A stretch of DNA of 64,000 nucleotides from Acidobacteriota bacterium (GCA_963663035.1 OY760074.1:1216001-1280000), one strand, 5' to 3'; numbered from the stretch's first letter, positions 32,615 through 45,952 are shown. Numbers and translations: made by a program. The notes: generated by a model from the letters alone, not told the origin.

Positions 32615-32845
32615 AACGATTCCCGGCTTTGACCCACCCAAAATGCTCCCTTTTGTGAGATGTAGATAGCCCCCAATGCCAAATCTTGAGGTGTCCTGAA
32701 AGCAATCAAAAATGGCCTCAAATGGGGTTTGAGTTGGCTGGAGTGAGTTGGAGTGAGTTTGCCGCGGGCACACTTTAGGCACAATTGGGCCATTTTGGGG
32801 TTGAGTCGGGGGGACTCAATTTGGCTGAAACCCGCGTCAGGAGCG

Positions 32846-32913
32846 TGCCCGGGGAGGGACTCGAACCCTCACGAGGGAAACCCTCACAGGATTTTAAGTC
32901 CTGTGCGTCTGCC
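32846..32913 (-). pseudogene. tRNA-Leu(UAA) 3' fragment, att-like site 1
   Basis: Reverse complement GGCAGACGCACAGGACTTAAAATCCTGTGAGGGTTTCCCTCGTGAGGGTTCGAGTCCCTCCCCGGGCA: anticodon arm TAA, long variable arm and T arm present; 5' acceptor strand absent. Confidence 0.85.
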
Positions 32914-33009
32914 TCGAACCCCAAAGCTCACCTGGCCGTAAAACGCCCAACCCACCCTCTGACCACCGCAAGGTAAGTCGGCTTAGATTTCCTCAGGCGT
33001 TTCGGGCGT

Positions 33010-33194
33010 TCGCAGGCCCATGGGCCACATTGTGAACCGGTATTATGCGGCTCAGCATAAGCGTTCCGCTTCACGCGGCATGTTCAGCGGAAGTCCTTGC
33101 CTATGAGGTAATTACGGAGGACCTTTCGCCGATTTCTGCTTGCCTCTTATTGGAGCAACTAGGATACTACTGATCAGTATACTCATCGCTACAC
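33010..33194 (+). other. Mini-integron leader copy A (degenerate intI tail and attI-like site)
   Basis: Aligns by eye with 35830-36023 and 45225-45416 (TATGCGGnTCAGyATAA...ATGTTCAGCGGAA...CCGATTTCTGCTTGC...GATCAGyATAyTCA); core degenerated to GCTACAC. Confidence 0.6.
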
Positions 33195-33221
33195 TGACGG
33201 ACAGGAAGGTGGACAGGCGTC

Positions 33222-33926
33222 TTGGTCATGAATAGTAGTAGTTATAAGTTTGGCGCCGTGAGCGGCGTGCTTGGTGCTGTACTTCTTTTTGCGGGAACCT
33301 CGCTACACCCAATGCAGGCAGATCCGAACGACCCTGTTGCTGCTTTCTCGGAGTACGCGGCCGATCGACATTGGGTTGCCAGTCATCTAACACAGCTCGC
33401 TGGAGTTACTCTCATTGTTGGCGCGCTCTTAGTGCTCGCCCGCGAGTTGGAGTCCGGTGGCCGAGCGGTTCTTCCCCGCATCGCCTCTGGGGGAGCGATC
33501 ACTAGCTTGGCGTTGACAGCTGTTCTTCAGGCAGTGGATGGCATCGCGCTTAAAGTGATAGTTGACGCATGGGCTGGGGTGGAGTCCCCCGAAAAGGCCG
33601 GTTTGTTCCATGCAGCATTCGGAGTCCGTCAGGTCGAAGTCGGGCTCGCCAGTGTCACGAGTATGTTCTTCGGCCTCACAGTTACGGTGTACGGAATTGC
33701 GTTATGGAACAGCAGGCACTATCCCCGATGGGTCGCAGTACTTGCCCTGCTGGGAGGTATCCCCACTTTGGTTGGGGGAGTTCTAATTGCGTACACTGGT
33801 TTTTCAAACTTAGCCATGACGGTCTATATGCCCGCCAGTTTACTTATCCTCGTTTGGGTTATTTTAGTGGGTGCTCTTATGTGGCGCCATGGCACAGCTG
33901 TCGGAGGTGGCCCAGAAACCTCTTGA
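33222..33926 (+). CDS. Multi-pass membrane protein, probable cassette ORF of module A
   Basis: Hydrophobic ORF (LHPMQADPND, LQAVDGIALK) directly after leader A; GTTAGGC at 33932 follows but no full attC stem. Confidence 0.75.
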   Translation: MVMNSSSYKFGAVSGVLGAVLLFAGTSLHPMQADPNDPVAAFSEYAADRHWVASHLTQLAGVTLIVGALLVLARELESGGRAVLPRIASGGAITSLALTAVLQAVDGIALKVIVDAWAGVESPEKAGLFHAAFGVRQVEVGLASVTSMFFGLTVTVYGIALWNSRHYPRWVAVLALLGGIPTLVGGVLIAYTGFSNLAMTVYMPASLLILVWVILVGALMWRHGTAVGGGPETS

Positions 33927-34001
33927 GCCAAGTTAGGCGCACAAGACGCAAGGTGGGGTGACAAGATGCCGAGATCCGTAGATACCATCCGCATATATCC
34001 C

Positions 34002-34033
34002 ACTTGGCCGATAAGCCGACTATACGTTCACTG
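34002..34033 (-). other. dif-like 13-6-13 recombination site (left boundary of module B)
   Basis: ACTTGGCCGATAA-GCCGAC-TATACGTTCACTG. Confidence 0.6.
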
Positions 34034-34127
34034 AAGCGGAAACTTAAGCACTCCGGTGTCTTTGGCGACTGGATTGCTAAGGATCTTTTGGAGGACGGCT
34101 ACAACATTCGCCCAGTGCGGAAGCTAG

Positions 34128-35766
34128 CCGCAATTATTCATAAGTTTGGGGTGAGTGTCGATTTTCTGCGGAAGTTCAGGGCTGAGAGTGTGTTCAGGTG
34201 CGATTACAAGGCGTCCAAGCTTGTTGAGCCGAATAGAGATGAAGCGAGAGCCCCTTCCGGAAACAGCTCGGCCCGCAGGGGGCTGTATATCTGTGTTGGC
34301 GCAGGGAGTCAGGGGACCGTCAGGTGGGACACAGACGGTGCATCAGTAATGCGAAGAGCTTTTGTTCGGGATAAGACGATGCCAGGTGCACCCAGATGCG
34401 ACGAGAAGTTTCCCGAACCCGGGCACCGATTTTGAACAGGCGGCGGCGGAGCGTCTCAATCTCCAGGTTGTGCCAGGGAGTCCCGCACAGGTAATCCCGC
34501 AGGCGCAGGATTAAGACATAGGCCAGGGCGTGGATGAAGAGTCGGAACTGGTTGGCCAGGAAACGGTGGCAGCTCAAGCGATCCATGGCCAGATCTTTTT
34601 TGAAAGCTTTCACGAAGTTCTCGCACTGGCCCCGTCCGATGTAGTGGTCATACAGCTGCCCGGCCGTGAGATCCTGGCGGTTGGTGACCACAAAGCGACG
34701 GTTGAACCCGCGCTCGCTCACTTCCACCTTGGCCACCATGCGCCGCTCCCGGTCCCAACTGTCGGCCTGATAGACGAGCTCGGTGAACTGGCGTTGCTTT
34801 TCTCCTGAGTCGTCATAGTCTGCTTGCACCTGCTCAACCAAGGGCTCGACGGTGGCCGCCAGCCGGGAGTTGCGGGCAAAGCCCACCACATACTGCAGTT
34901 TTTCCTCCTCACAGAACTCGTACAGTGCCGGCGTCGCAAAGCCACTGTCGGCTCGCACTTCGATCGGAACATCGGATCCCAGAACCTGGCGCATCCGGGC
35001 CACCACCCGTTTGAGAACCGCCACCGCGTGGGCGGCCGCCCCCTGGTTGCCGGGCCGCAGTAGCGCACATACCAGATCGCCCGTCTCGCCATCGAATAGC
35101 AGCAGCGGATGATACATGTGCTCGCGATAATAGCCGTGGTAAAAGCTGAACTCCTGCTGCCCATGCGTGACGTCATCCGTGCTGTCGATGTCCAGGATGA
35201 TCTTCTCGGGCCGGCTCTTCTTGCGGTGCTTCAAGTAGGTCTCCAGCAGCCACTGTCCCAGGCGAGTGAGATCCTTCGAGTCCACCGAGTTCTCCAGTCG
35301 CGACAGCGTGGGTTGAGAAGCCAGATCCGGATCGCTTTCCGGCAGCCGATCACACACGGTCTTGAAGATGGGATCCGAGCGCAAGCTGTCGGCATCGTTG
35401 CAGTCCTCATAGCCGGCCACGATCTGAAAGCTGCGCTGGGTGAGCAGTTCGCGAATCTGGTGGCGGACGTAGCGGCTATCTCGAGCGTCCTTCAGGCAGG
35501 AGGCAAAGCCAGCCGTCAGTCCGTGCTGTTGATCCAGGGCGTACAGACACAGCAGCCCGGCATCGGAGGAGAGCCGGCCTCCATCGAATCGAGCCACCAC
35601 TTTTCTGTCAGGGTGAGATGGCAAGTTGATCTGGCAGACTGATGCATCGCTGGGCCGTACCTTTTTGGTTTGGAGTTGTTTCATAACCCCTTTTATATCA
35701 AAGAGGTACGGCATCTTTTTGTGCCCTCGATCAGACCCCTTCTTCAGAATTTATGAATAATCCGGG
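34128..35766 (-). mobile_element. IS1380-family element (1639 bp) with CTAG duplication
   Basis: Ends CCGCAATTATTCATAA and TTATGAATAATCCGGG; CTAG at 34124-34127 and 35767-35770. Confidence 0.9.
34320..35714 (-). CDS. IS1380-family transposase
   Basis: FDGGRLSSDAG, GYEDCND, ASQPTLSRLEN, LDIDST, RADSGF and RGQCEN. Confidence 0.95.
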   Translation of the reverse strand: MPYLFDIKGVMKQLQTKKVRPSDASVCQINLPSHPDRKVVARFDGGRLSSDAGLLCLYALDQQHGLTAGFASCLKDARDSRYVRHQIRELLTQRSFQIVAGYEDCNDADSLRSDPIFKTVCDRLPESDPDLASQPTLSRLENSVDSKDLTRLGQWLLETYLKHRKKSRPEKIILDIDSTDDVTHGQQEFSFYHGYYREHMYHPLLLFDGETGDLVCALLRPGNQGAAAHAVAVLKRVVARMRQVLGSDVPIEVRADSGFATPALYEFCEEEKLQYVVGFARNSRLAATVEPLVEQVQADYDDSGEKQRQFTELVYQADSWDRERRMVAKVEVSERGFNRRFVVTNRQDLTAGQLYDHYIGRGQCENFVKAFKKDLAMDRLSCHRFLANQFRLFIHALAYVLILRLRDYLCGTPWHNLEIETLRRRLFKIGARVRETSRRIWVHLASSYPEQKLFALLMHRLCPT

Positions 35767-35868
35767 CTAGTGTTGACGGGGACGTGAAAACAATAATGGT
35801 CTACACCCGCGTCTTGAACCAGGGGCCGAGGGGTGTGCTGAGCCCCATAGACAAAATGCCGGACGGTG

Positions 35869-36023
35869 ATATGCGGATCAGTATAAGCCTCTTGCTTCGA
35901 GCGGGATGTTCAGCGGAACTCGTTGCCAGTAAAGCTAATTACGTAGCGTCTTCAACCGACTTCTTTTTGCATCTTATACAGACAACTGGATTAGTATACT
36001 GACCAGCATATTCACTGTTATCC
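35869..36023 (+). other. Mini-integron leader / attI-like site, copy B
   Basis: Ends CAGCATATTCACTG|TTATCC; TTATCC is complementary to the cassette's own R'' GGATAAC. Confidence 0.75.
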
Positions 36024-36039
36024 GCCAAGGATGGTTTAG

Positions 36040-36740
36040 ATGAAGTACTTCACTAAATCAGAATGGATGATTTTAGTCGGGTTGTTTGTGCTCAGTGTTA
36101 TTCCCGTCTCCGCAGGTATATTTCGTCTTGTAGAGCTCGGAGGCGGCGCAGCGATGTTACCTGAAAATCCACGTGTGACCGCGGCACCCATGCCGGTTGT
36201 GTTGCACATTATCAGCGTTGGTCTTTACTGCTACCTCGGGGCCTTTCAATTTCTCCCGAGCATCCGCCGTCACAGCCCCAAGTGATGGCTCATGATTCGG
36301 CGCCTGTGGCATGCAACGGCCGGCTCATGGTTGTTTCAGGCATTTCGGCTCTTTCAGGCCTGTGGATGACGCACTTTTATTCCTTCCCTTATGAGCTTCA
36401 AGGCGATCTTCTTTACTGCGTTCGCATTCTGCTTGGTTCCGCCATGGTCGTATTCATAGTTCTGGGTTTGGCTGCCATTTTAAGACGTGACATTGTTCGG
36501 CATAGTTCATGGATGATTCGCGCCTATGCCATCGGCCAAGGGGCGTCCACCCAGGCGCTATTGCTCATGCCTGGGTCTATGATTGGCGAAGAACCGAGTG
36601 GCCTCGCCAGAGACGTATTGATGACATTCGCCTGGATAATAAATATTGCCGTCGCTGAATGGATCATCCGAAAAGTGTTCAACAAAACGGATAACAAGTC
36701 GCTCAACACGGACGTGGCTACGCCACGCCGGTTAGCTTAG
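36040..36740 (+). pseudogene. DUF2306-like membrane protein gene cassette, frameshifted near 36283
   Basis: PVVLHIIS...LGAFQF in one frame, then ALSGLWMT...RHSSWMIRAYAIGQGASTQ in a second frame. Confidence 0.72.
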
Positions 36741-36748
36741 CGTTAGCT
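36689..36748 (+). other. attC site (module B)
   Basis: R'' GGATAAC-AAGTCGCTCAAC...GGACGTGGC-TAC-GCCACGCC...GTTAGCTTAGC-R' GTTAGCT; imperfect 60-bp palindrome. Confidence 0.88.
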
Positions 36749-36787
36749 CAGCCATGGAGAAGACAATCTTGTCAGCCGCTATCGCCC

Positions 36788-36819
36788 ACTTGGCCGTAAA
36801 ACGCCCTATTCGCCCTTGA
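36788..36819 (+). other. dif-like site (right boundary of module B, right arm degenerate)
   Basis: ACTTGGCCGTAAA-ACGCCC-TATTCGCCCTTGA. Confidence 0.5.
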
Positions 36820-37162
36820 ATGATTCCAAGAGGATCTAATCTTCAGGCCAGCCGTAAGGAGGGCGCTGACCATAAAGAGTCCTTAAGGTTGACCAGAGTG
36901 CGGCGAACCGTGTGCTTCCCGCCTTCTATTGCAGAACGCCACCTGGTAGATGCATATCCCAGTCCGGCTTCTGTGAAGGTTGAAAACATCCCCCTCAAAA
37001 TAGATGCACCACTAGTCCGTTTGAGAGCTATTTCAGCAACCAACTCATCAGGGTCGACTAGCACCGGTCTGATTGCCCGACCCCAAACCATGGATCTCTC
37101 GTATGCTGAGATAAACCAAGAGTCCTATTGGCCTGACCTGCCCCCACGAACGAGTCCACCCT

Positions 37163-38058
37163 CTATGCTAGACCCGGGACCATTTGAAGTCCACTCCAAG
37201 GGATTGGATCCAGTGCCTGCGACCTAGGTAGTTTGGCCTCTGGCGCCGGCGGCCGATAGGCCAAGGCGCTGTGAGGCCGGATCTGATTGTAATCCCTCCG
37301 CCAGCGTTCTACCAACACCTTGGCTTCCCCCAGCGTGTCGAAGATCTCCATGTTCAGCAGCTCATCCCGTAGTTTCCCGTTGAAACTCTCAATGTACCCA
37401 TTCTCCCAGGGGCTGCCCGGCTCGATGTACAAGGTCCTTACCCCAACAGCCTGCAGCCAGTCCCGGACCGCCTGTGCCGTAAACTCCGATCCGTTATCGG
37501 ACCGGATAAACTCAGGCACTCCCCGATCAACGAATAACTCCGCCAGCCGGTCCAACACGTCTTGGTGATTCATCTGCCGTTTCACATCAATGGCGAGGCA
37601 CTCTCTGGTGTACTCATCCAGGATCGTCAATAGCCGAAAGGCTCGCCCATCATGGGTCCGTTCATGCACGAAATCATAGCTCCAGACGTGGTTCTTGCGA
37701 GCCGCTCGTAACCGAACACAGGAACCGTCATTAAGCCACAGCCTCCTTCGTTTCGGCTGTCTGGACGGGACTTTCAGCCCTTCTTGTCTCCACAGCCTCT
37801 CCACCCGCTTAGGATTCACCTTCCACCCTTCCCCATGAAGTATCGCCGTGACCCGCCGGTAGCCATAACGCCCGTATTGCTTAGCAACTCCACCATCCGG
37901 GCCACCAATCGGGCCTCATCATCGGGAATTTGCCTTTCCCTTCGCTGGGTCGATCGAACCTGTCCCAGCACTTGGCAGGCCCGACGTTCGGAGACTCGCT
38001 CTGCTCCTAATCGCTCTCGTACCCACATCACCGCTCGTCTCCTGTTCGCCGGGCCTAG
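37163..38058 (-). pseudogene. IS3-family transposase OrfB (frameshifted)
   Basis: VSERRACQVLG in one frame; the integrase core is in another frame (37163-37819). Confidence 0.8.
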
Positions 38059-38333
38059 AAGTTTCCCGAGGACACTTCCTTCAGGATCTGCTTGTCCAAA
38101 GACAGATCCGCCACCAGCTTCTTCAACCGGGTATTCTCCTTCTCCAACACCTTCAACCTCTTGGCCTGGTCCAACCGGAGCCCTCCGTACTCTTTGCGCC
38201 ACCGGTAGTAGGTCTGCTCGCTCACCCCCATCTGCTTCGACACCTGTCCCACCCTCTGTCCTTGGGCCAGACCCACCTCTGCCTCACGCAGCTTCATGAT
38301 GATCTGTTCTGCCCTAAACCGCTTCCCTGCCAT
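38055..38333 (-). CDS. IS3-family transposase OrfA
   Basis: GVSEQTYYRWRKEYGG...LEKENTRLKKLVADLSLD; ends at a GGGAAAC slippery-like site. Confidence 0.9.
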   Translation of the reverse strand: MAGKRFRAEQIIMKLREAEVGLAQGQRVGQVSKQMGVSEQTYYRWRKEYGGLRLDQAKRLKVLEKENTRLKKLVADLSLDKQILKEVSSGNF

Positions 38334-38400
38334 CCTTGCCTCCTTCCTAAACCGGAAATCCTAACATTCAAACTGGACTCGTTTTAGGGGGCAAGGTCAA

Positions 38401-38659
38401 GTGGCGCATGGACTACAATCAGCAAAGACCTCATAGCTCGCTTAGGGATCAAACGCCGGAGGCTTTTGCCCTCGCTAGCGAGGGCAAAGAAAGGGGAGGC
38501 ACTCACGTGAGTAGGGTGAGTGTTCTAGAGCCCCAAGGGGTGGGTGTTTCACCCATCCCAACCTGAAAATACTAACCCTATGCTTGGTACAGTTTTCCGG
38601 GGCAGGTCAGTGGTCCCAGGTCTAACTTAGAAGGTGGACTCGTTCGTGGGGGCAGGTCA
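38401..38659 (+). mobile_element. IS3-family debris: second transposase 3' end plus two stacked right ends
   Basis: WRMDYNQQRPHSSLRDQTPEAFA; ends ...GGGGCAGGTCA at 38609 and 38659, the latter the reverse complement of the 37134 end. Confidence 0.75.
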
Positions 38660-39004
38660 GACTTCGCCGCACTGAGGAATTACTGCCGTCATCTGGAGTT
38701 GAACTTTGCCTCCTTTGCCGTGCTGACTCCTCTGCCGGGGACTGACCTATATCACGAGGTGAGAGATCGGCTCATCACGCGCAACTATGATTGCTTTGAC
38801 TTCATTCACACGCTGCTCCCGACGACACTCCCTCTCAAGGATTTCTATGCGGAGTATCACGATCTTTATAAAAACGGGATCGCCCTGAGCAAGCAGCTCT
38901 CTTTGCTTAAGAAGTATCCATTACGAGAAATCCCAGGCTTACTGGCAAAGGGACGCCGATTCTACAAGAGACTCAAGACGGCCTACCTGGACTATGAGAA
39001 TTGA
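38660..39004 (+). pseudogene. Radical SAM (B12-binding type) C-terminal fragment, cassette truncated by IS3 debris
   Basis: FAVLTPLPGTDLY motif; no N-terminus; followed by attC. Confidence 0.72.
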
Positions 39005-39027
39005 ACGTTGTTGGCGTGTCACTAGCC

Positions 39028-39091
39028 GTCTAACCAGTCGCTCCAGCCGCCGCGGGCCCGAGGCCCGCGCGGGCTGAGCTCATCGTTAGCT
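39028..39091 (+). other. attC site (module D)
   Basis: R'' GTCTAAC-CAGTCGCTCCAGCC...GCGGGCC-CGA-GGCCCGC...GGCTGAGCTCATC-R' GTTAGCT. Confidence 0.88.
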
Positions 39092-39125
39092 CAGCCATAG
39101 AGAAGCCAATCACCACCCTTTCGCC

Positions 39126-39157
39126 ACTTGGATGTATAACGCCCTTACCGGAAACTG
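39126..39157 (+). other. dif-like 13-6-13 site
   Basis: ACTTGGATGTATA-ACGCCC-TTACCGGAAACTG. Confidence 0.62.
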
Positions 39158-39219
39158 ATCGACAACCGAAGGTTCAGGTTTGGTGCAAAGTGGTGCATAT
39201 TGATGTATAATTGTAGTTT

Positions 39220-39477
39220 ATGGCAACCATGGAAAAACCCATTCGTCAGAGCATCTCGCTGCCCTCTCGTCTGGCCAAGCGGGTCAAGGCTTTGGCCAAG
39301 CACCAGAAGACCAGCGCGAACCGAGTTCTCGTTGAGCTCATCGAGACTGGGCTGGAGTCGAAGGAAGCTGAGAAACACCGGTTCTTTAAACTGGCAGACC
39401 GGTTGAGTACTTCGACCGATAGAGCAGAGCAGCGGCGCATCAAGGAGGAGCTGGCACGCCTGACGTTTGGGGAGTAG
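39220..39477 (+). CDS. Ribbon-helix-helix (CopG-like) protein, putative antitoxin
   Basis: RQSISLPSRLAKRVKALAKHQKTSANRVLVELIETGL fits an RHH strand-helix-helix pattern. Confidence 0.75.
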   Translation: MATMEKPIRQSISLPSRLAKRVKALAKHQKTSANRVLVELIETGLESKEAEKHRFFKLADRLSTSTDRAEQRRIKEELARLTFGE

Positions 39478-39720
39478 ATGCCGAAAATTCAATGGAAGAA
39501 TCTCCCGCCTGCCCTCCGGGATCATCTCTTCGATCGACTTCGCGAGCGAAAAGTCACAGTCGAGAACCTCTATCAGTTGAAACTTTGGCGCGAAACCGAG
39601 CCCGAGGCTCCAGAAGGACTTTGGTACAAGGACTTTGGATCGTTCAAGATCTGTGGGGAAGGGAGATATCCGAAGACCTTTCTACTGCGCGGTCAGCCCG
39701 CCAAGGGGGTGAAGCTCTGA
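39478..39720 (+). CDS. Small basic hypothetical protein, putative toxin
   Basis: 80 aa, ATG directly after the RHH stop (TAGATG), GGAG RBS inside the upstream gene. Confidence 0.65.
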   Translation: MPKIQWKNLPPALRDHLFDRLRERKVTVENLYQLKLWRETEPEAPEGLWYKDFGSFKICGEGRYPKTFLLRGQPAKGVKL

Positions 39721-39848
39721 AGTACTCCCATTAATGCTTGGAAGACCTCCCGCGACCTCACGGCTACCTCTCGGCCCTATGACCCTCTACTCACCTCCGG
39801 ATGCAAGAGGACCTAATCTTCAGGCCAGCGGTAAGGAGGCCGCTGACC

Positions 39849-40799
39849 ATGAAGAGAAAAAGCAAAAGGAGTTCCAAGAAGGTTTCCAAGACCAAAACCA
39901 GGCTTCAGCTTCCCGATCTCGATCAAGCCAAGGCAGCCGTGCTCAACAGTCTAGGATCACCGGAGTCGCAACGCGGGTATCACCATGCCATCGACGAGTT
40001 CATTGGTTGGTATTGCTCTGAACCGCGCCTCTCCTTCAACAAGAGCGTGGTAACCCGCTACCGAATCCACCTCGAGGCTCGCCAACTGGCACCAGGAACC
40101 ATCAACGTCAGACTCGCAGCGGTGCGCCGTCTCGCTTACGAGGCGGCCGACTTTGGGCTGTTGAGCCCGGAACTCGCAGCGGGCATACGCCGGGTCAAGG
40201 GAGCGAAAAAATTGGGCGTTCGCCTTGGCAACTGGCTGACGGCTGAAGAGGCTCGCACCCTGTGGCAACTTCCTAATACCGAGACTCTCAAAGGCAAGCG
40301 TGACCGAGCAATCCTGGCAACCCTCTTAGGTTGTGGACTTCGTCGCCGTGAGCTTGCTGAGTTGACCTTCTATCACCTCCAACGTCGTGAAGATCGCTGG
40401 GTAATCATCGACCTGGTTGGCAAAGGGGGCCATGTTCGGACAGTCCCGGTTCCAGACTGGGTCAAACGAGCCATCGACATCTGGCTCACCGCAGCCGGAA
40501 TTGCGAGCGGTCGACTCTTTCGGTGCGTTTGTAGAGCGGGAACCGCCTGGGGCAACGGCATGACGGAGAAGGTTGTCTGGCATGTCGTCAAAAACTATGC
40601 TGCCAAGCTCGGAGCTCCAAAGCTCGCTCCACATGACCTTCGTCGATCCTGTGCACGCCTCTGTCACGAAGCCGGCGGCGAGTTGGAACAGATCCAATTT
40701 CTGCTCGGCCACGTCTCAGTGCAAACGACAGAAAAGTACCTTGGGTGCAAGCAGCGCCTTCGCGGAGCCGTCAACGATCGAATTGGAATTGAGCTATGA
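39849..40799 (+). CDS. Tyrosine recombinase / site-specific integrase
   Basis: RDRAIL...GLRRREL, GKGGHVR, HDLRRS, LLGH and TTEKY give a complete R-K-H-R-H-Y set; AAGGAGG RBS before ATG 39849. Confidence 0.93.
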   Translation: MKRKSKRSSKKVSKTKTRLQLPDLDQAKAAVLNSLGSPESQRGYHHAIDEFIGWYCSEPRLSFNKSVVTRYRIHLEARQLAPGTINVRLAAVRRLAYEAADFGLLSPELAAGIRRVKGAKKLGVRLGNWLTAEEARTLWQLPNTETLKGKRDRAILATLLGCGLRRRELAELTFYHLQRREDRWVIIDLVGKGGHVRTVPVPDWVKRAIDIWLTAAGIASGRLFRCVCRAGTAWGNGMTEKVVWHVVKNYAAKLGAPKLAPHDLRRSCARLCHEAGGELEQIQFLLGHVSVQTTEKYLGCKQRLRGAVNDRIGIEL

Positions 40800-40830
40800 C
40801 ATAGTCAGGTGCAAGGGTATACGACATCCC

Positions 40831-40862
40831 ACCCGGACGACTTGCCGACTATACGTCCATGT
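40831..40862 (-). other. dif-like site downstream of the recombinase
   Basis: ACCCGGACGACTT-GCCGAC-TATACGTCCATGT. Confidence 0.55.
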
Positions 40863-40971
40863 GAACAAGTAGGCCTGCCACATCAGCAACGATCAGTCAT
40901 ACAGATTTAGACAGGCTGAGATGCATCTAACATCCTTTGCAGGACATAACCTGCGAGAGTTGCCCAGATGG

Positions 40972-41595
40972 TTAACACCTATCACCGAGGCTCATCATTA
41001 GAAAGCCACAGAATGCAGGATTGTTCGGCGCAAGATTTGCGTTTGATTTGGCTCTGATTTCCAAAAGATTCTTACGGAATTTGCGATAGAAATCCCATGT
41101 GGGGGTGGGCCTATATTCAAGATCTAGTTCAAGTTTCTCTATGATCAATTTTGCGGTCGTCGGCTTCACAAAAACCTCTTTTCGCGGACGGTAGTATGCC
41201 TGAATTACCGTAGCAAGTGACCACTTGGCTAGTTTGTTCTTCATAAGCTGATCGACAAAAAGCTCAAACCCAATCCTCTCTTTGCCGTGAAGGAGTTCGA
41301 AGAGCGCCTCCGACACGGCTTCCTTCTCCTTTGTCTTCATTGCTTTTGTATAGTCACGGAATTTCGGCTTTTCAAACATCGAAATCATCGTCGATCGACC
41401 GACGAGTTTCGCTGTTTCAGTGACCACGTAATGAGGGTCGTTGAAATTGTCTTTTGCGAAGGCTTCCTTTGCCAAAGCCTCAAATTGTTCCATCTTGTGC
41501 TTTTTCCCAAGTTCAACCAGATCAGGGTGCTTGAACCCCCCGGGGTACTGCCTAAGAAATTTCCTTTCGGCCTCTTGGAGTACCTTGGCATTCAT
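40972..41595 (-). CDS. Hypothetical protein (207 aa)
   Basis: Clean ORF with AGGAG RBS; no motif recognised. Confidence 0.75.
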   Translation of the reverse strand: MNAKVLQEAERKFLRQYPGGFKHPDLVELGKKHKMEQFEALAKEAFAKDNFNDPHYVVTETAKLVGRSTMISMFEKPKFRDYTKAMKTKEKEAVSEALFELLHGKERIGFELFVDQLMKNKLAKWSLATVIQAYYRPRKEVFVKPTTAKLIIEKLELDLEYRPTPTWDFYRKFRKNLLEIRAKSNANLAPNNPAFCGFLMMSLGDRC

Positions 41596-41605
41596 ATTGT
41601 TTCTC

Positions 41606-41791
41606 CTAGTGCGATCTTATGTATGCTTTGCGTCCATCAATCATCTTCAGAACGTCCCGACTCATCATGCTCTTCATCATGAATGAGTCCATTAGGGAGA
41701 CTACCCAGTTCTTTGGCGCATAGTGGGTCTGCAACCCAACCCTCGTTGTGTTGTCGTCGAGCTCTCCGGACACCCCACAGCATCTGGCCAC
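41606..41791 (-). pseudogene. Possible SRPBCC-like C-terminal gene remnant
   Basis: TTRVGLQTHYAPK...MMKSMMSRDVLKMIDGRKAYI resembles a terminal strand plus helix; weak. Confidence 0.3.
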
Positions 41792-41797
41792 TGATAC

Positions 41798-42385
41798 TCA
41801 GATTGCGCTATTGGGCCTGTAGATGCTCATCATCGCGCCAGTCGAGCAAGTATCCGTTTTTATGAGCGTCAAACCTGTCGGTACGGTGCCCTGAGCGAAT
41901 AGGCGTTTCCCAGAGCCAACAAGGACGGGAAAGATCCATAGTCGGAACTCATCGATAAGCCCATGGGAAAGGAGGGTCTGGATCAGTTGCCAGCTTCCAT
42001 GAACTTGTAGCAAGGGACCGTCTTGGTCCTTGAGTCGAGAGACCTCCGCCGCAATGTCCCCTGTGATGGGCACGGAGTTTTTCCACTCGAGTTTGCTCAA
42101 GGTGGATGTCGCAACGAACTTGGTTGCGTTGTTAAGTTTGTTGGCAGGCGGGTCGTTGCCGGCGTCTGGCCAATGAGCTGCGAAGCCCTCGTAGGTCTTT
42201 CGGCCGAGTAGAAGGTCGTAGGGAGCGGCCATCGCCTCTTCCATCACCTGCTCCATCACGTCGTCCCAACAGTCGCGGGCCCAGCCGCCGTGCATAAATC
42301 CGCCCGAAGGATCTTCCTCGGGACCGCCGGGCGCCTGCATGACGCCGTCAAGAGTCAAAAATGTTAAAATCGCAAGATTCCTCAT
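41798..42385 (-). CDS. Dihydrofolate reductase-like (RibD C-terminal) family protein
   Basis: TLDGVMQAPGGPEED, LLLGRKTYE, VHGSWQL and LIDEFRLWIFPVLVGSGKRLF. Confidence 0.9.
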   Translation of the reverse strand: MRNLAILTFLTLDGVMQAPGGPEEDPSGGFMHGGWARDCWDDVMEQVMEEAMAAPYDLLLGRKTYEGFAAHWPDAGNDPPANKLNNATKFVATSTLSKLEWKNSVPITGDIAAEVSRLKDQDGPLLQVHGSWQLIQTLLSHGLIDEFRLWIFPVLVGSGKRLFAQGTVPTGLTLIKTDTCSTGAMMSIYRPNSAI

Positions 42386-42430
42386 GACGATCTCCTTGTT
42401 CTGCTTGCCGCTAGTTCATATGTCCTAGCT

Positions 42431-42856
42431 TCAGCGTGTGGTAGTTGAGTTGAATTTCGCTCGTACGTCTGCGATGTAGCTCGACTTATCTCCTCTAAAC
42501 CGATCCAGGTGTTCCCTCGTAACAGCAGTGTATAGATCGTACTTTGACGCCCAAATAAACATCTCGATGAACATAGGAAGTAGATCGAGAGCCTTCTCAG
42601 TGGGGGAGTAAATATTCTTCCTGAGATTGTTCGGATCTCGGGTCTTTTTTAGTATCTTGAGCTTCTCTAGCTTAGCGAGTCGATCCGCGAGGATATTGGT
42701 GGAGATGCCTTCCTCGGACTCCAGGAACTCGTGATAATACTGTTTTCCCAAGATGATGACGTCTCTCAAAATGAGGAGGCTCCACTTGTCACCGAGCAGC
42801 TCAAGAAAGTATGCGCATGGGCACCCGGTTCGGGTCTTGTACTTCATATCAACCAT
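42431..42856 (-). CDS. HxlR-family winged-helix regulator
   Basis: RTGCPCAYFLELLGDKWSLLILRD...EGISTNILADRL. Confidence 0.9.
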   Translation of the reverse strand: MVDMKYKTRTGCPCAYFLELLGDKWSLLILRDVIILGKQYYHEFLESEEGISTNILADRLAKLEKLKILKKTRDPNNLRKNIYSPTEKALDLLPMFIEMFIWASKYDLYTAVTREHLDRFRGDKSSYIADVRAKFNSTTTR

Positions 42857-43091
42857 AGCAAAACACCTGTTAACTTGTAAAATGATAGCATTAATAGGTA
42901 CATAAAAGCAAGCTCTATTTAAAAGGGTAAATAACATATAAACATATTATAAACAAATGGTTAATAGAAGTTCAATTGAGTAGTGTTCAGACATATAGAA
43001 AAAAATATCCATCAATAACTTGCATAATACAAGTATCATTGGTATACATAGTCTCCGACCATGAAACCTATTAACAAAGGAGGAAAAGAAA

Positions 43092-43457
43092 ATGGAAAAC
43101 ACAGTCGTATGGTTTGACATCCCGGTCACCAATATTGAGCGGGCAAAAGAATTCTATCAAGCAGTGATCGGTGCAGAACTCACAGACATGGAGAATGGGC
43201 CCGCCCGGTTTGCCATGTTCCCATTCGCGCCAGGTATCGCGTCAGGTGCACTCGTTCAGAGTCCTGACAGTAAACCAAGCGCTTCGGGCACCACGGTCTA
43301 TCTAAATGGAGGGAAAGATCTTTCAGACCCGTTATCACGCGTAGAAAGTGCTGGTGGCAAGATCGTAATGCCAAAGACCAGTATAGGAGAAAATGGGTTT
43401 ATGGCCCGTTTCCAGGACACTGAAGGCAACGTCGTAGCTCTACATAGTATGCAGTAG
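43092..43457 (+). CDS. VOC/glyoxalase family protein
   Basis: VWFDIPVTNIERAKEFY...RVESAGGKI...FQDTEGNVVALHS; AAGGAGG RBS. Confidence 0.92.
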   Translation: MENTVVWFDIPVTNIERAKEFYQAVIGAELTDMENGPARFAMFPFAPGIASGALVQSPDSKPSASGTTVYLNGGKDLSDPLSRVESAGGKIVMPKTSIGENGFMARFQDTEGNVVALHSMQ

Positions 43458-43502
43458 GAAGGAGAGCCTGGCTGTTTGGCTCGCGATTTTGGGATTTGAT
43501 TG

Positions 43503-43541
43503 AGGCCCGGCCTGCCGGTAAACTAGCCGTCGGGCCGGGCC
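43503..43541 (+). terminator. GC-rich hairpin after the VOC gene
   Basis: AGGCCCGGCC...GGCCGGGCCT; no clear U tract. Confidence 0.35.
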
Positions 43542-43592
43542 TATCGAAACGATCCCTGAAAACAGGTAATCAACACCACGGAGACTCTAAAT

Positions 43593-44300
43593 ATGCAAAA
43601 TCATAAGATAGTATCGAAAGAAGAGTGGCTTGTTGCACGAAAAGAGCTTTTGGCTAGAGAGAAAGAATCTACCCGACTACGTGACCAATTGAGTGCTGAG
43701 CGGCGGAAACTCCCCTGGGTCAAGGTCGAGAGCGAGTATCTTTTCGACACTCCGAAGGGTCAAGAAAGCCTGTCGGATTTATTCGAGGGACGTAGCCAGT
43801 TGATTATCTATCACTTCATGTACGGGCCTGACTGGGCGGAAGGTTGTCCCAGCTGTTCCTTTTGGGCGGACAATTTCAACGGAATTAATATTCACCTCAA
43901 CCATCGAGACATCAATCTGGTTGTTGTCTCTAGGGCACGACTGGAGACGCTAGAAGCCTACAAAAGGCGCATGAATTGGAGTTTTAAGTGGGTATCATCG
44001 TTTGGAAGCGATTTCAATCGTGACTACAGCGTTTCATTCACTCCCGAGGAAGCGGAAAAAGGGGAGGTATTCTACAACTTTCGCGTCGGCAAGTTTCCCA
44101 GCGAGGAGGCAGCCGGAATCAGTGTGTTTTACAAGAACGAGCAGGGAGACGTCTTTCATACATATTCGTGTTACGCACGCGGTTTGGATATGGTAAACGG
44201 CGCATACCACTACATGGATCTCGCACCCAAAGGGCGTGATGAAGGCAGTTTACCTTACACGATGGCTTGGCTCAGTCGTCATGATCAGTACAAGGATTGA
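43593..44300 (+). CDS. DUF899 thioredoxin-like protein
   Basis: EWLVARKELLAREKE, RRKLPWV, LFEGRSQLIIYHFM, GCPSCSF, HTYSCYARG. Confidence 0.92.
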   Translation: MQNHKIVSKEEWLVARKELLAREKESTRLRDQLSAERRKLPWVKVESEYLFDTPKGQESLSDLFEGRSQLIIYHFMYGPDWAEGCPSCSFWADNFNGINIHLNHRDINLVVVSRARLETLEAYKRRMNWSFKWVSSFGSDFNRDYSVSFTPEEAEKGEVFYNFRVGKFPSEEAAGISVFYKNEQGDVFHTYSCYARGLDMVNGAYHYMDLAPKGRDEGSLPYTMAWLSRHDQYKD

Positions 44301-44454
44301 AGTCCTGTCCCCGTATTCGTCAGTATCGCATCAACGGAGTTGCTCACCCGCTGGAGAATTGAAGCAAAAAAATGACTGCACCAACTAACACTGTTTTTCG
44401 CATACGTCATCTCCGCCAAACCTTTCGGAATTTTTGGGTTTGGTGCTCAAATGG

Positions 44455-44590
44455 ACACGTCCTTCCAAGACTCCATCAAACGGTAAAGCGTTCAGTCCGA
44501 GGCGATATCGAAGTCGTAGATGACGGTATGGATGCCACCTTGACCGATCTCCTCTAGAACTTTGTAGTGGCTGATGGTCGTGCCGACCAT
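44455..44590 (-). pseudogene. Decayed Ser/Thr kinase 5' remnant
   Basis: MVGTTISHYKVLEEIGQGG, followed by a degenerate VIYDFDIASD segment and a stop. Confidence 0.7.
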
Positions 44591-44795
44591 GACGTCTTCC
44601 TCAATGTGGGTGTGATTCTTGTTCAATCCTAAAACCATTGGGAGTGAAAAGGCAATCAAAATTGCCCCTTATCTTGGCTGGAGCGGGGTGGAATGGGGTG
44701 GAGTGGGTTTGGCGCGGGCACACTTCGGGCACAATTTGGGTACTTTGGGGTTGAGTCAGGGAGACTCAACTTGGCTGAAACCCGCGTCAGAAGCG

Positions 44796-44857
44796 TGCCC
44801 GGGGAGGGACTCGAACCCTCACGAGGGAAACCCTCACAGGATTTTAAGTCCTGTGCG
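44796..44857 (-). pseudogene. tRNA-Leu(UAA) 3' fragment, att-like site 2
   Basis: Direct repeat of 32846-32907, sharing ~100 bp of flank with GGCACA repeats. Confidence 0.85.
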
Positions 44858-45121
44858 CTTTTTTGACCGGGCGACTGGGCATGCAGCTGGTTCAGGCTAC
44901 CTGAGCGTCGTCATATAGGAACCTCAATAACGGATGGGTCCATTCTTCGGATAAGTATATACGGGCAGTCCCTTCAGGCTCCTTGCACCTCGTTTGGTTA
45001 GGATACCCACATGTGTTGTGTCTCTTTCGCTCTAACAACTGCACTGTTGTATGCCCTTGGGCGAAACCAGTTTCTAACCGCCTTCACGCCGACTTGAACG
45101 CACCGACCAACCAGAGCGGGC

Positions 45122-45153
45122 ACATGTACGGTAAGCGGACTATACGTCCAAGT
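45122..45153 (-). other. dif-like 13-6-13 site (left boundary of module C)
   Basis: ACATGTACGGTAA-GCGGAC-TATACGTCCAAGT. Confidence 0.68.
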
Positions 45154-45156
45154 GGA

Positions 45157-45261
45157 CTAGGAACACGAGGATGTTAAGAATAACAAATGGGGCACACCGA
45201 CATCTTGAATCGGGGACCGATGGGGAGTTCGGACCCCATGGACAAAATGCCAGACGGGTAA
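45157..45261 (+). pseudogene. Decayed IntI-like 3' end, copy C
   Basis: LG/HEDVK...HTDILNRGPMGSSDPMDKMPDG-stop with frameshifts; homologous to 35775-35868. Confidence 0.72.
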
Positions 45262-45416
45262 TATGCGGGTCAGTATAAAGACTTCTGCTTCGAGTGCCAT
45301 GTCCAGCGGAACTCGTTGCCAGTAAGATTACTTACGTAGCGTCTTCAGCCGATTTCTGCTTGCGTTTTATACGGACAATTATGAGGATATACGGATCAGC
45401 ATATTCACTGTTAGCC
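45261..45416 (+). other. Mini-integron leader / attI-like site, copy C
   Basis: Ends CAGCATATTCACTG|TTAGCC; complementary to the cassette R'' GGCTAAC. Confidence 0.78.
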
Positions 45417-45451
45417 ACACACCACAACCAGGAAGCGAAGGAGCGAAGAAG

Positions 45452-45814
45452 GTGATCAAGTTTGTCATGTGTTTGACACGCCACCCGCGTATGACTCGCG
45501 AAGAATTCAGGGACTACTGGAAGAACAAGCATGGTCCGTTCTTTATGAAGAATGCAGATAAGATGGGTGCCCAGAGGTACGTGCAATCTCACACCCTGAA
45601 CACGCCGCTAAATGAAGGCCTCAGGGCCTCCAGAGGGATGCTTCCTGAATATGACGGCGTTGCGGAAGTCTGGTTCGAGTCAGAAGAAGCGCTTGTTGCG
45701 GGAATGAGCTCTCCTGAGGGGCAGCAACTTGGCGCAGCCCTGCTGGAAGATGAGGGGAACTTCATCGACCATTCCAAATCATCGGCGTTTATCGTTGAGG
45801 AGCACGAATTCTAG
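45452..45814 (+). CDS. EthD-domain protein, gene cassette
   Basis: RHPRMTREEFRDYWKNKHGP...RYVQSH...YDGVAEVWFES...EDEGNFID. Confidence 0.9.
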   Translation: MIKFVMCLTRHPRMTREEFRDYWKNKHGPFFMKNADKMGAQRYVQSHTLNTPLNEGLRASRGMLPEYDGVAEVWFESEEALVAGMSSPEGQQLGAALLEDEGNFIDHSKSSAFIVEEHEF

Positions 45815-45816
45815 GT

Positions 45817-45879
45817 GGCTAACAGGGCGATGCAGGCGGACCGGCCTCCGGCCGGCCGCTGATCGCCAAGGCGTTAGCT
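45817..45879 (+). other. attC site (module C)
   Basis: R'' GGCTAAC-AGGGCGATGCAGGCGGACCGGCC-TCC-GGCCGGCCGCTGATCGCCAAGGC-R' GTTAGCT. Confidence 0.9.
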
Positions 45880-45920
45880 CAGTCATGGAGAAGACGATCT
45901 TCTCAGCCACCCTTTCGCCC

Positions 45921-45952
45921 ACTTGGACGTATAACGCCCTTACCGTGCAAGT
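45921..45952 (+). other. dif-like 13-6-13 site (right boundary of module C)
   Basis: ACTTGGACGTATA-ACGCCC-TTACCGTGCAAGT; left arm is a perfect inverted repeat of 45141-45153. Confidence 0.7.

Follow-up and report, generated by a model that had tools for sequence, protein, structure and literature searches.

Integron remnants in an insertion sequence-rich island

We analyzed a 64-kb (64,000-nucleotide) stretch of an Acidobacteriota genome of soil/sediment type, referred to here as the window. Between 32.9 and 46.0 kb it contained a leader in three copies (A, B, and C), a common tail, also present three times (B, D, and C), and three attC sites. This region lies within a 20-kb island rich in insertion sequences (IS), which is absent between the same two genes in three congeners (G005, G003, and G004); synteny with relatives picks up again at about position 46160. 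The features are listed below in window coordinates.

32845..32927, -, tRNA-Leu(UAA) 3' fragment, abutting R0 (ARAGORN; 5' acceptor strand unpaired)
32926..32961, +, R0, palindromic site of R type (site HMM E 0.0017; alignment)
32968..32995, +, L0, decayed L-type site (by eye only; missed by the HMM)
33036..33188, +, leader copy A with degenerate attI, CATCG|CTACAC (blastn 73.5% to leader C; alignments)
33222..33926, +, A's cargo, DUF4386-like membrane protein of 234 aa (PF14329, 27.1 bits; cut-off, 27.6)
33997..34030, +, L1 site, bounding unit B on the left (site HMM E 0.0086)
34031..34127, +, delta-intI of B, part 1, …LLEDGYNIRPVRKL (translation; 91% identity over 128 nt to G008:C329)
34128..35770, -, IS1380-like element, CTAG duplicated (PF13701, E 8e-152)
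35771..35858, +, delta-intI of B, part 2, …TIMVYTRVLNQGPRGVLSPID (tblastn E 1e-5; TIGR02249 positions 289-315)
35859..36017, +, leader B, ending at attI crossover G36017|TT (blastn; alignments)
36018..36742, +, cassette B, carrying a DUF2306 gene split into 36040-36285 and 36282-36740 (PF10067, E 2.7e-23)
36686..36751, +, attC of B (CM R1 29.4 bits, E 3e-6, rank 2)
36743..36782, +, tail B, antisense pseudogene fragment
36783..36819, +, R1 site (site HMM E 1.5e-5)
36827..36879, +, 5' remnant of a second recombinase gene copy (92% identical to 39804-39856)
37134..38399, -, IS3-family element (rve/rve_3 domains; about 55 genome copies)
38699..39004, +, cassette D, radical SAM gene (B12-binding), 3' portion (TIGR04367, E 3.8e-11, C-terminal part only)
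39025..39094, +, attC of D (CM R1 16.3 bits, E 0.03, rank 3)
39086..39120, +, tail D
39121..39157, +, R2 site (site HMM E 1.4e-7)
39220..39720, +, putative antitoxin-toxin pair, two small genes (RelB-like match weak and under the cut-off, E 0.0018)
39849..40799, +, Xer-like tyrosine recombinase, 316 aa, ORF opening at 39801 (PF00589, E 3e-21)
40826..40863, +, L2 site (site HMM E 4.2e-5)
40972..44300, strand not assigned, five-gene cargo: unknown protein, RibD_C, HxlR regulator, glyoxalase/VOC, DUF899 (Pfam)
44795..44880, -, another tRNA-Leu 3' fragment plus its downstream flank (repeat 44649-44857)
45117..45157, +, L3 site, bounding unit C on the left (site HMM E 1.3e-7)
45170..45257, +, decayed delta-intI of C, shorter than that of B by about 100 nt
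45258..45410, +, leader C, ending at attI crossover G45410|TT (blastn; alignments)
45411..45873, +, cassette C, EthD-domain gene at 45452-45814 (PF07110, E 2e-24)
45814..45882, +, attC of C (CM R1 77.8 bits, E 7e-21, rank 1)
45874..45913, +, tail C
45914..45952, +, R3 site, right end of the island (site HMM E 4.6e-8)

Two units, B and C, were complete, and two, A and D, were partial. Copy A combined the degenerate junction with decayed sites around the DUF4386-like gene; it had no tail, and the covariance model CM R1, run on the 64-kb window, gave no attC match there. Copy D had no leader, its left part having been lost beside IS fragments. The captured genes (DUF2306 in B, EthD in C, the radical SAM end in D, and the DUF4386-like gene in A) confirm the preliminary description, which had reported integrase-less units holding different cassettes. 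The IS1380-like element, present in about 35 copies in the genome, interrupts unit B, and an IS-free form occurs in L110; the IS3-family element is followed by a fragment of another IS copy, to 38662. Both tRNA-Leu calls were rejected as intact genes, being 3' fragments; the intact tRNA-Leu(UAA) gene lies at genome positions 3548899-3548984.

Only the last 25 to 70 codons of intI remain in the units. In B, positions 35781-35852 were 75% identical over 24 aa to the C terminus of a relative's IntI (E 1e-5), and the remnant matched TIGR02249 with an E of 1.6e-4. The decay of intI was thus borne out, but the intact IntI elsewhere in the genome that had been named as possible support was not found: none of 12 TIGR02249 matches exceeded the cut-off (best, 83.9 bits versus 265). 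In the congener G003, a co-oriented intI is followed about 170 nt on by ...CAATAG|TTAGGTTC, a cassette with nirK, and an attC whose R'' is GAACCTAAC, and on contig L112 the first ~27 codons of a G003-type intI are joined straight to the leader. The junction of the L site with delta-intI is common to B, L110, G008:C329, and L109, and the derivative shorter by about 100 nt is common to C, L113, and L114. Behind these shared truncated left ends (both types), the first genes are DUF2306, methyltransferase, desaturase, EthD, and SDR. B, C, D, and A are fossils of one integron lineage with intI transcribed toward the cassettes; its order is intI, a leader of about 190 nt, the attI crossover CACTG|TT, and a cassette with its own attC.

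Footprints of cassette insertion and spread of the leader

CM R1 was built from nine attC sites of seven other genomes and run on the window with filters off. Among its nine matches at E<=10, the sites of C, B, and D took the top three ranks, and the next-best match scored 10.5 bits (E 1.7). R' was GTTAGCT in B, D, and C (36742, 39085, and 45873), and D had an R'' GTCTAAC at 39028-39034. With the leader (45261-45410) as a blastn query against the whole 3.59-Mb genome, three places were found, all in the window: the query itself, 35869-36017 (81.6%), and 33044-33185 (73.5%). The leader starts after the last codons of the truncated, co-oriented intI, and in an alignment of 18 copies similarity stopped exactly at G|TT. 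Read directly from the sequence, G36017|TTATCC in B complements R'' GGATAAC at 36688-36694, and G45410|TTAGCC in C complements R'' GGCTAAC at 45816-45822. Of another 11 leader loci, six (L110, L113, L114, L041, L042, and L048) have the exact complement of a downstream R'' in the six bases past the G; L111 has one mismatch, and four lack a match. Besides B and C, the exact footprint was present in G006b, G008:C329, and G003, and G006a matched at 6 of 7 positions. As the preliminary description proposed, the copies are integron-type units, with intI decayed to its 3' end, a junction resembling attI, and bona fide attC sites.

The leader was also found in other families of the order and on six metagenome contigs with other cargo, in agreement with the suggested family of dispersed platforms. 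A broken intI always adjoined the leader copies in other Acidobacteriota genomes and metagenome contigs, and many different first cassettes followed. Leader C was 93.5% identical to the copy in G005, where the housekeeping flank was 78 to 79% identical, compared to 79% to B and 71% to A. In G021, a leader copy precedes a decayed gene homologous to the cargo of A. Next after the DUF2306 cassette comes the tail in this genome and another cassette in L110 (where cassette B is 96% identical); next after the SDR cassette comes the tail in L113 and another cassette in L114. We infer that cassettes would still have been exchanged at attI after intI truncation, with IntI supplied from elsewhere, and that the units in this genome are presumably now frozen. 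Homologous exchange within the conserved leader could swap the truncated left end onto other arrays, so that IntI in trans would not be strictly required for cassette turnover after truncation. A consensus scan of the leaders' + strand found no promoter above threshold.

Palindromic sites and a linked recombinase

The unit borders are imperfect palindromes of about 36 bp of two kinds, R and L, with common arms (CCACTTGGnCGTA) and different centers. The preliminary description had not mentioned these sites, the recombinase and putative toxin-antitoxin module between units, the fragmentary nature of the tRNA-Leu calls, or the 20-kb extent of the island. The site HMM found 17 in the genome, 7 of them between 32.9 and 46.0 kb, and 59 distinct copies were typed (R consensus, 32; L consensus, 27). 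The site pattern occurred in 11 of 15 family genomes, at 0 to 16 copies per genome, and reversed-pattern controls gave 0 to 1. We rejected host dif as the identity of R and L, since the other four genomes had no site at all. The 316-aa recombinase (XerC model, 112 bits versus a cut-off of 335) is single copy in the genome and has more than 120 metagenome clusters at >=75% identity. The order R-recombinase-L, with or without the antitoxin-toxin pair after R, was seen in the window, L110, and L109; the pair has a 96.7% identical copy in L109. Unit B recurs at 96 to 97% identity on a metagenome contig with an intact recombinase adjoining. At 10 loci of other families with recombinases >=75% identical, sites lay on both sides in three (L116-L118) and on one side in two (L121 and L140), and no convincing site was seen at five; none was convincing at the 15 loci with recombinases 58 to 69% identical. 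Sequence past the site center varies with the next module, and several site-bearing genomes have no intact recombinase. The R/L alternation is broken in the window, with L..L around A and around the five-gene cargo and R..R around D, which we assume to reflect lost sites. Circular or excised forms and empty sites were not seen, and neither a target duplication nor a crossover point was mapped for R and L.

Less certainly, this arrangement points to a second system, unrelated to the integron, behind the repetition of the platform. R-to-L modules would carry the Xer-like recombinase with or without the putative toxin-antitoxin pair, and L-to-R modules would carry the integron platform. Recombination between like sites would excise and insert modules, giving a mosaic 20-kb island comparable to Acinetobacter dif modules. 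The platform also spreads or persists without R/L sites, because leader copies in other families had none within 4 kb. As a whole, the explanation in three steps (a fossil lineage, exchange after truncation, and R/L module shuffling) seems to us reasonably probable.

The shared tail and competing explanations

Blastn of the tail against the genome gave three full copies (45871-45952; 36740-36807, 87%; and 39084-39150, 82%) and five partial matches elsewhere, covering only the last ~35 nt. The preliminary description had regarded leader and tail as one portable attI platform, empty as CACTG|TTAGCTCAG, with the tail as its displaced right half and the cassettes captured independently. Both junctions do fall exactly at G|TT, the tail of B, C, D, G006, G009, and L113 starts with TTAGCTC, and three runs each have one Logan contig that links 36020 with 36741, as judged from its two matched ends, one of just 28 letters. 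However, the junction of leader-CACTG|TTAGCTCAG-tail occurred in 0 of 76 genomes of the order, the tail is absent from platforms in other families, and L110 and L114 have a further cassette at the expected tail position. At four loci, moreover, an uninterrupted tail (...GATGTTGCCG|GT(T/C)AGCTCAGCC...) extends leftward into ...CATCATCCAGATGTTGCCG and, on the reverse strand, encodes an unbroken peptide (…DKIVFSMAELTGNIWMMEN…) through the supposed crossover. Because the uninterrupted tail continues into an antisense pseudogene fragment, not into a leader, it is unlikely to be attI's right half, and because the tail is such a fragment, its G|TT is probably a secondary site. The tail would be a host-type gene fragment in antisense, whose GTTAGCTC was used once as a secondary recombination site and which thereafter formed the fixed right border of the array. 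IntI1 is described as inserting cassettes at genomic GWT sites (bioRxiv 10.1101/2022.09.11.507474). The empty leader-tail platform is, in our judgment, unlikely; the integron-type units, the different cassettes, and the dispersed platform of the same description stand.

A single resident chromosomal integron, duplicated and broken in place by IS and deletions, would leave the repeats as local debris and the platform as not portable. The IS load of the island (two IS6, an IS256-like, the IS1380-like element inside B, and the IS3 beside D) and the confinement of the genome's three leaders to 13 kb fit this account, but the leaders are just 71 to 79% mutually identical, and leader C resembles another species' copy more closely than the flank does. 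With the cargo of A common to a copy in another family, unit B recurring on the metagenome contig, and the whole island absent in three congeners, we find in-place breakage quite improbable. We give very little credence to the leader as a cis-regulatory RNA or expression signal before unrelated genes instead of a recombination site. About 150 nt of it are conserved at 70 to 94% across families, with one copy of a near-palindromic 16-mer at each bound and an invariant GTTCAGCGGAAC, yet it matched no Rfam family at E<=1, and compensatory change affected just 2 of 27 predicted pairs (covariation term, -0.7 kcal/mol). The 6 nt past the end of leader similarity match each cassette's own attC, and three truncated copies retain only the last 55 to 75 nt. 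A regulatory role beside attI is possible. Assembly artefact would be conceivable in a region so rich in repeats and IS, but the copies differ by 20 to 30% and are therefore not collapsed or duplicated reads. Contigs from public runs, which may include the source sample, were 100% identical across 33628-34122 (the A|B border), 38634-39163, 40801-41844, and 45336-45895, and we consider an artefact extremely improbable.

The R and L sites could also be terminal inverted repeats, belonging to an IS-like element (R-recombinase-L) and to miniature forms derived from it (R, a short spacer, and L), with the platforms as passengers trapped between two of these elements in the manner of MITE-integron-MITE or IMU structures. 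The 15 best-conserved nucleotides (CCACTTGGnCGTATA) lie at the outer ends of R-recombinase-L, R~L pairs 10 to 60 nt apart are common, D sits between two recombinase copies of the same direction, and defective class 1 integrons flanked by MITEs or IMUs are known (PMC3575428; PMC3934969). Against this, the borders showed no target-site duplications by eye, the enzyme is a tyrosine recombinase and not a DDE transposase, and the R and L centers are consistently different. Single L sites arrayed in one direction about 1 kb apart (G004:C136) better fit site-specific insertion. We see the passenger account as a minority possibility and favor the shuffling of modules between R and L sites.

Comparison with known systems

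The units share the R''-L''...L'-R' attC structure, promoterless one-direction cassettes, and the G|TT crossover with chromosomal integrons and with CALIN/SALIN, i.e., attC sites without an integron integrase. Unlike in chromosomal integrons, intI is directed toward the cassettes, an "inverted" orientation known from Treponema denticola and some other groups. In contrast to CALINs, the units retain a recognizable attI and an intI stump, and in contrast to both CALINs and chromosomal integrons, one and the same truncated platform is present in many genomes, the first cassette varying. Decay of intI is reported as common, about one third of intI genes being pseudogenes (PMC2426708); single attC sites without an integrase are described as frequent, and 95% of CALINs as not near intI pseudogenes (bioRxiv 10.1101/2022.09.11.507474, the latter citing earlier work). 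The defective class 1 integrons with MITEs or IMUs likewise consist of an immobile, partly truncated integron between two short bracketing copies, described as inverted-repeat copies and moved by an enzyme in trans (PMC3575428; PMC3934969). Their brackets are transposase-dependent MITEs of 288 to 439 bp, whereas those seen here are palindromes of about 36 bp linked to a tyrosine recombinase, with no target duplications seen, in an environmental Acidobacteriota chromosome, and resistance genes play no part.

On Acinetobacter plasmids, dif modules are described as one or a few genes between asymmetric two-arm pdif sites of alternating orientation, with two module classes by inward-facing arm, with toxin-antitoxin, empty, and fused (site lost) modules, and with rearrangements between sites of like spacers (PMC13141974). 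The R/L modules resemble them in their small gene content, alternating two-arm sites, and two module classes, with putative toxin-antitoxin modules, empty modules, and modules that may have fused through site loss. They differ in that the site sequences are unrelated, the setting is chromosomal and not plasmid, and a dedicated Xer-like recombinase lies inside a module, whereas pdif sites use host XerC/XerD. This genome holds several enzyme-less gene-capture units, each with a different captured gene, between short palindromic sites linked to another recombinase, which may move them.

Repeated integron scaffold and its attC sites

The genome is closed (3.59 Mb), and the leader, a stretch of about 150 to 190 nt ending at the crossover CACTG|TT, was found by direct-repeat and blastn searches at three places in it, all between 32.9 and 46.0 kb of the window. 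The same searches found three copies of the tail, the shared sequence to the right of attC, in units B, D, and C. These repeats bear out the scaffold proposed for this interval in the preliminary description, and the genome-wide leader blastn suggested there returned B and A as the other copies, all within the window.

Copies of the leader and tail (window positions)
33044-33185, leader of unit A (partial copy)
35869-36017, leader of unit B (complete copy)
36740-36807, tail of unit B
39084-39150, tail of unit D (partial copy)
45261-45410, leader of unit C (complete copy)
45871-45952, tail of unit C

We searched for attC sites with a covariance model (CM R1) trained on nine aligned sites from seven other genomes; it replaced two simple scanners that were too crude, one having lost B and D and the other C. 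The alignment has a two-helix attC structure, with 87% of the cells paired versus 14 to 46% when the partner was slid. With the filters off, CM R1 gave nine matches at an E value of ≤10 in the 64-kb window. The top three were the attC sites of C (77.8 bits), B (29.4 bits), and D (16.3 bits), and the fourth match scored 10.5 bits (E value, 1.7). Imperfect hairpins with R″/R′ and L″/L′ boxes are present at these three sites, and R′ reads GTTAGCT in all of them. D lies 2.3 kb from B, and C follows another 6.8 kb on. Copy A had no CM R1 match in the window. Close relatives of the attC of C occur in several genomes of the order. A genome-wide, sequence-only nhmmer search with the attC alignment, which cannot detect other attC types, returned nothing convincing outside the window sites (E values of 1e-15 for C, 0.12 for B, and 0.11 for genome position 3310730).

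At the opposite end of the cassettes, the junction of unit B (G36017|TTATCC) is complementary to its own R″ (GGATAAC, at 36688), and that of unit C (G45410|TTAGCC) is complementary to GGCTAAC at 45816. The integron reading was right: the three attC sites lead the ranking of the window, as the suggested covariance-model check required, and the footprints of B and C are exact.

The repeats are unlikely to be assembly artefacts, a possibility raised in the preliminary description, since several borders have 100% matches among contigs from public runs. Logan contigs also contain joints from 36020 to 36741, from 34125 to 35865, from 39832 to 40773, and between leader copies; their short sides are 20 to 38 letters long, the letters between are not known, and we treat these joints as hints of variant fillings and not as evidence. 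For marine sediment metagenomes, the share of about 0.3 comes from one run only (X1) and supports no claim about habitat.

Truncated integrases, attI, and the tail

No functional intI was found in the genome, so the intact copy envisaged elsewhere in it is absent: of the 12 matches to the IntI profile TIGR02249, the best are Xer-like genes and score no more than 83.9 bits against a cut-off of 265. With three attC sites and no IntI, the genome corresponds to a CALIN/SALIN (attC without an integron integrase nearby), an assignment made by that definition. Beside the leaders, only the last 24 to 70 or so codons of intI remain. The stretch ahead of leader B reads ...TIMVYTRVLNQGPRGVLSPID, with 75% identity over 24 aa to the C terminus of a relative's IntI. 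The whole architecture is visible in the congener G003, where intI (frameshifted in that assembly) ends in ...VLNRGGLGVRSPVDTL* and is followed after about 170 nt by ...CAATAG|TTAGGTTC, a nirK cassette, and an attC with GAACCTAAC. This layout indicates that the intI of the lineage is oriented towards the cassettes and that attI lies downstream of its stop codon.

In an alignment of 18 leader copies, similarity is lost exactly past G|TT, and different cassettes follow. By this comparison, the leader end corresponds to the attI, a fixed crossover for cassettes of differing content. Among 11 further leader loci, R″ is exactly complementary to the first cassette bases in six and has one mismatch in another; no such match was found within range in the remaining four. 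The footprint is also exact in B, C, G003, and two further loci (G006b and G008:C329), and 6/7 in G006a, which upholds the earlier claim of an IntI footprint. A consensus scan for a Pc promoter reading into the cassettes gave no plus-strand site in the leaders and 9 sites in the region versus 8.0 expected; Acidobacteriota promoters may deviate from the consensus used. A leader promoter spotted by eye (TTGCGT-17-GATACT) fails the consensus scan and was dropped. The leader is flanked by two near-palindromic 16-mers (ATATGCGGATCAGTATA and TATACTGATCAGCATAT; 35866-36017, 45258-45410, and copies in other loci) and contains an invariant palindrome, GTTCAGCGGAAC; all three are candidate protein-binding sites.

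The scaffold query matched 25 of 61 related genomes, a count that takes in the genome itself and one unpublished genome with a weak match (G017). IntI exceeded the cut-off in 6/61, G017 again included; its loci L028 and L089 were left out of use, and none of our claims depends on this genome. The leader part was matched in G005, G021, G029 (twice), G045, G008, G010, G049, G055, and others, and the narrow CM R1 found no attC after the leaders of G005, G021, and G029. An exact-pattern leader scan gave seven loci in species-representative genomes and six in metagenomes. An intact intI next to the leader is absent from all of these loci, and the largest remainder is aa 274 to 332. The gene was lost in at least four ways: by a junction with an L site (see below), by an IS256-like insertion plus 5′ truncation (G029), by internal deletion (the metagenome contig L112, where the first 27 or so codons of a G003-type intI are fused directly to the leader), and by reduction to shorter stumps (G029:C1 and G021). 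The first genes after the leader encode DUF2306, EthD, SDR, methyltransferase, GNAT, FAD oxidase, and DUF1801-like proteins, among others. The platform forms a dispersed family with varied cassettes in relatives and metagenomes, as had been proposed. Cassettes of different genomes begin alike in four loci (L037, L041, L080, and L086; TTATACGGCG...GGAGACCGCGAGACTCG), and this stretch may be a cassette 5′ element in common.

The copies that carry a common truncated junction bear on the order of events. B, L110, G008:C329, and L109 all have an L site joined to intI at about codon 265; C, L113, and L114 have a common derivative of this junction with about 100 nt deleted, and that of G010 is shorter still. 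Copies with a common junction nevertheless carry differing first cassettes. After the DUF2306 cassette comes the tail in unit B and another cassette in L110; after the SDR cassette, likewise, comes the tail in L113 and another cassette in L114. The simplest reading is that cassettes turned over after the truncation of intI, through an IntI acting in trans. Homologous exchange within the leader is the alternative. Leader C and the G005 copy share 93.5% identity, versus 78 to 79% for housekeeping DNA of the two genomes, and in the leader tree B is sister to the pair of C and G005 (support, 87/91), while A clusters with copies from other families.

Two states of integrons are usually seen: complete ones that have an integrase of their own, and orphan attC clusters, which are taken for debris. 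In the present case, the truncated platform persists across genera and families with a sharp attI and many different first cassettes, which suggests that an attI platform can survive the loss of its integrase. Resistance and virulence genes play no part. We found no paper describing the platform or the sites at its borders in open-access text, although the supplementary lists of IntegronFinder may include such Acidobacteriota elements.

The empty platform of the preliminary description fared less well. The predicted leader-tail junction was found in none of the order's 76 genomes searched, with up to 3 of 22 nt allowed to mismatch. The junctions at G|TT and the attI-like leader stand. The origin of the tail also needs correcting, because in four loci (G011, L109, and two contigs of G004) it extends leftwards as ...CATCATCCAGATGTTGCCG|GT(T/C)AGCTCAGCC... 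The reverse strand of the extended tail translates as ...DKIVFSMAELTGNIWMMENISE, with TIVLNWFEEF next in another frame, a motif present at about 16 places in the genome. Judged from this extension and reading, the tail derives from part of a host-type gene. A small ORF was rejected, as its ATG is not conserved. The GTT of the tail is likely a secondary recombination site, with GTTGCCG|GTTAGCTC as the candidate; genomic GWT sites are used by IntI1, according to bioRxiv 10.1101/2022.09.11.507474. Once joined, the tail would stay the right border whichever cassette is last.

Palindromes, recombinase, and module order

Each unit is bordered by an imperfect palindrome of about 36 bp. The R type reads CCACTTGGaCGTATA-ACGCCC-TtacCGgaaa.tg, and the L type corresponds to it in inverted form, centred on GTCGGC. 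A site HMM found 17 R/L copies in the genome, 7 of them in 32.9-46.0 kb. Across the window, the sites run R, L, L, R, R, L, L, R, so that strict alternation requires the loss of three sites.

Order of sites and modules in the window
R0 and a decayed L0
unit A
L1, unit B, R1
about 50 nt of recombinase gene start and IS3 debris
unit D, R2
two small genes, the recombinase gene, L2
five cargo genes and a tRNA-Leu fragment
L3, unit C, R3

Relatives have both R~L pairs and L-L-L arrays. In L090 (G004:C136, 1348-5038), three L sites in the same direction lie about 1 kb apart, each followed by one gene, whose products are, in turn, secreted, coiled-coil, and a cation antiporter. Tail-R~L closes the array, which resembles a series of cassettes assembled on L sites.

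The recombinase (316 aa) is Xer-like, scoring 112 bits with the XerC model (cut-off, 335), and is encoded by a single-copy gene. Its family in metagenomes is large and unnamed (>120 clusters at ≥75% identity), and no relatives were found in viral contigs. The gene is linked to R/L sites in the window and in L110, L109, L116-L118, L121, and L140. Of 10 close recombinase loci in another family of the class, R lies upstream and L downstream in three, and a single site is present in two more. L110 reads R-recombinase-L-truncated intI-leader-DUF2306 without an IS and shares 97% identity with unit B over the leader and 96% over the cassette; L109 reads L-platform-R...R-TA-recombinase, TA being a putative toxin-antitoxin pair. 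In L136 (G087:C9, 1504-3381), a homologue with 65% identity is directly followed by a second tyrosine recombinase, which has 33% identity to IntI over aa 20 to 333.

The modules occupy an island. Homologues of the window genes at 25229-25948 and 46103-47725 are directly adjacent in the congeners G005, G003, and G004, and here about 20 kb is inserted between them. Also within the island are two IS6 copies, one IS256-like element, and a hydrolase. The two IS6-family transposase genes (26673-27365, minus strand, and 30376-31068, plus strand) are identical in protein sequence, inverted, and enclose the IS256-like transposase and alpha/beta hydrolase genes; this segment looks like a composite transposon. 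The IS1380-like (34124-35770) and IS3-family (37134-38399) elements have about 35 and 55 copies in the genome, respectively.

The tRNA-Leu(UAA) calls at 32845-32927 and 44795-44880 are 3′ fragments that match the intact gene (genome 3548899-3548984, 2.3 Mb away) only over a stretch that begins at the D loop or anticodon stem and reaches the 3′ end. Neither has a full cloverleaf with a paired acceptor stem (Rfam, 33 and 31 bits, below gathering). At least six such fragments, each with about 150 nt of downstream flank, occur over the genome (others at genome 2363235, 2880769, 69830, and 74043), and two adjoin an R site in the same manner.

The cumulative GC skew reaches a plateau at its maximum at genome 1.225-1.29 Mb, which places the island near the likely replication terminus. 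This position suggested that R/L might be the host dif; we rejected that as a general reading, as copies are missing from 4 of the family's 15 genomes and number up to 16 in the other 11. Elsewhere in the genome, dnaA is present twice (39127-40437, plus strand, and 3512952-3514259, minus strand), and a 6.2-kb segment of the contig start (1-6168), including tRNA-Ser(tga), is repeated at 3569221-3575335 with 98% identity.

The portability claimed for the platform most likely has its source in a separate, putative recombinase-and-palindrome module system. The main rival is that the R/L layout is IS- or MITE-like. The sites have inverted 15-nt ends, and no target-site duplication was seen by eye at the borders of B, C, or R~L pairs. 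The sequence past the site centre varies with the next module, as expected if exchange occurs at the centre. The linkage of the platforms to this widespread Xer-like recombinase family and its palindromes points towards a system for exchanging modules in a phylum that is major in soil and sediment and about whose mobile elements, to our knowledge, little is known. We put forward only tentatively, as the less probable side of the question, the full form of this idea: that Acidobacteriota chromosomes shuffle modules through orthogonal R/L sites of about 36 bp and a dedicated Xer-like recombinase, much as in dif modules, and that one module type is an integrase-less platform still capturing cassettes in trans. 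Such a module would supply attI, and perhaps a promoter, and would still be fed by integrases acting in trans. If true, this would be a two-tier gene-capture device, with cassettes entering platforms and platforms entering arrays. The closest likeness for the R/L layout is provided by the dif modules of Acinetobacter plasmids, as described in PMC13141974; the resemblance extends to a module of toxin-antitoxin-like type, "empty" R~L modules of very small size, fused modules, and, if three sites were lost here, module classes that alternate in orientation.
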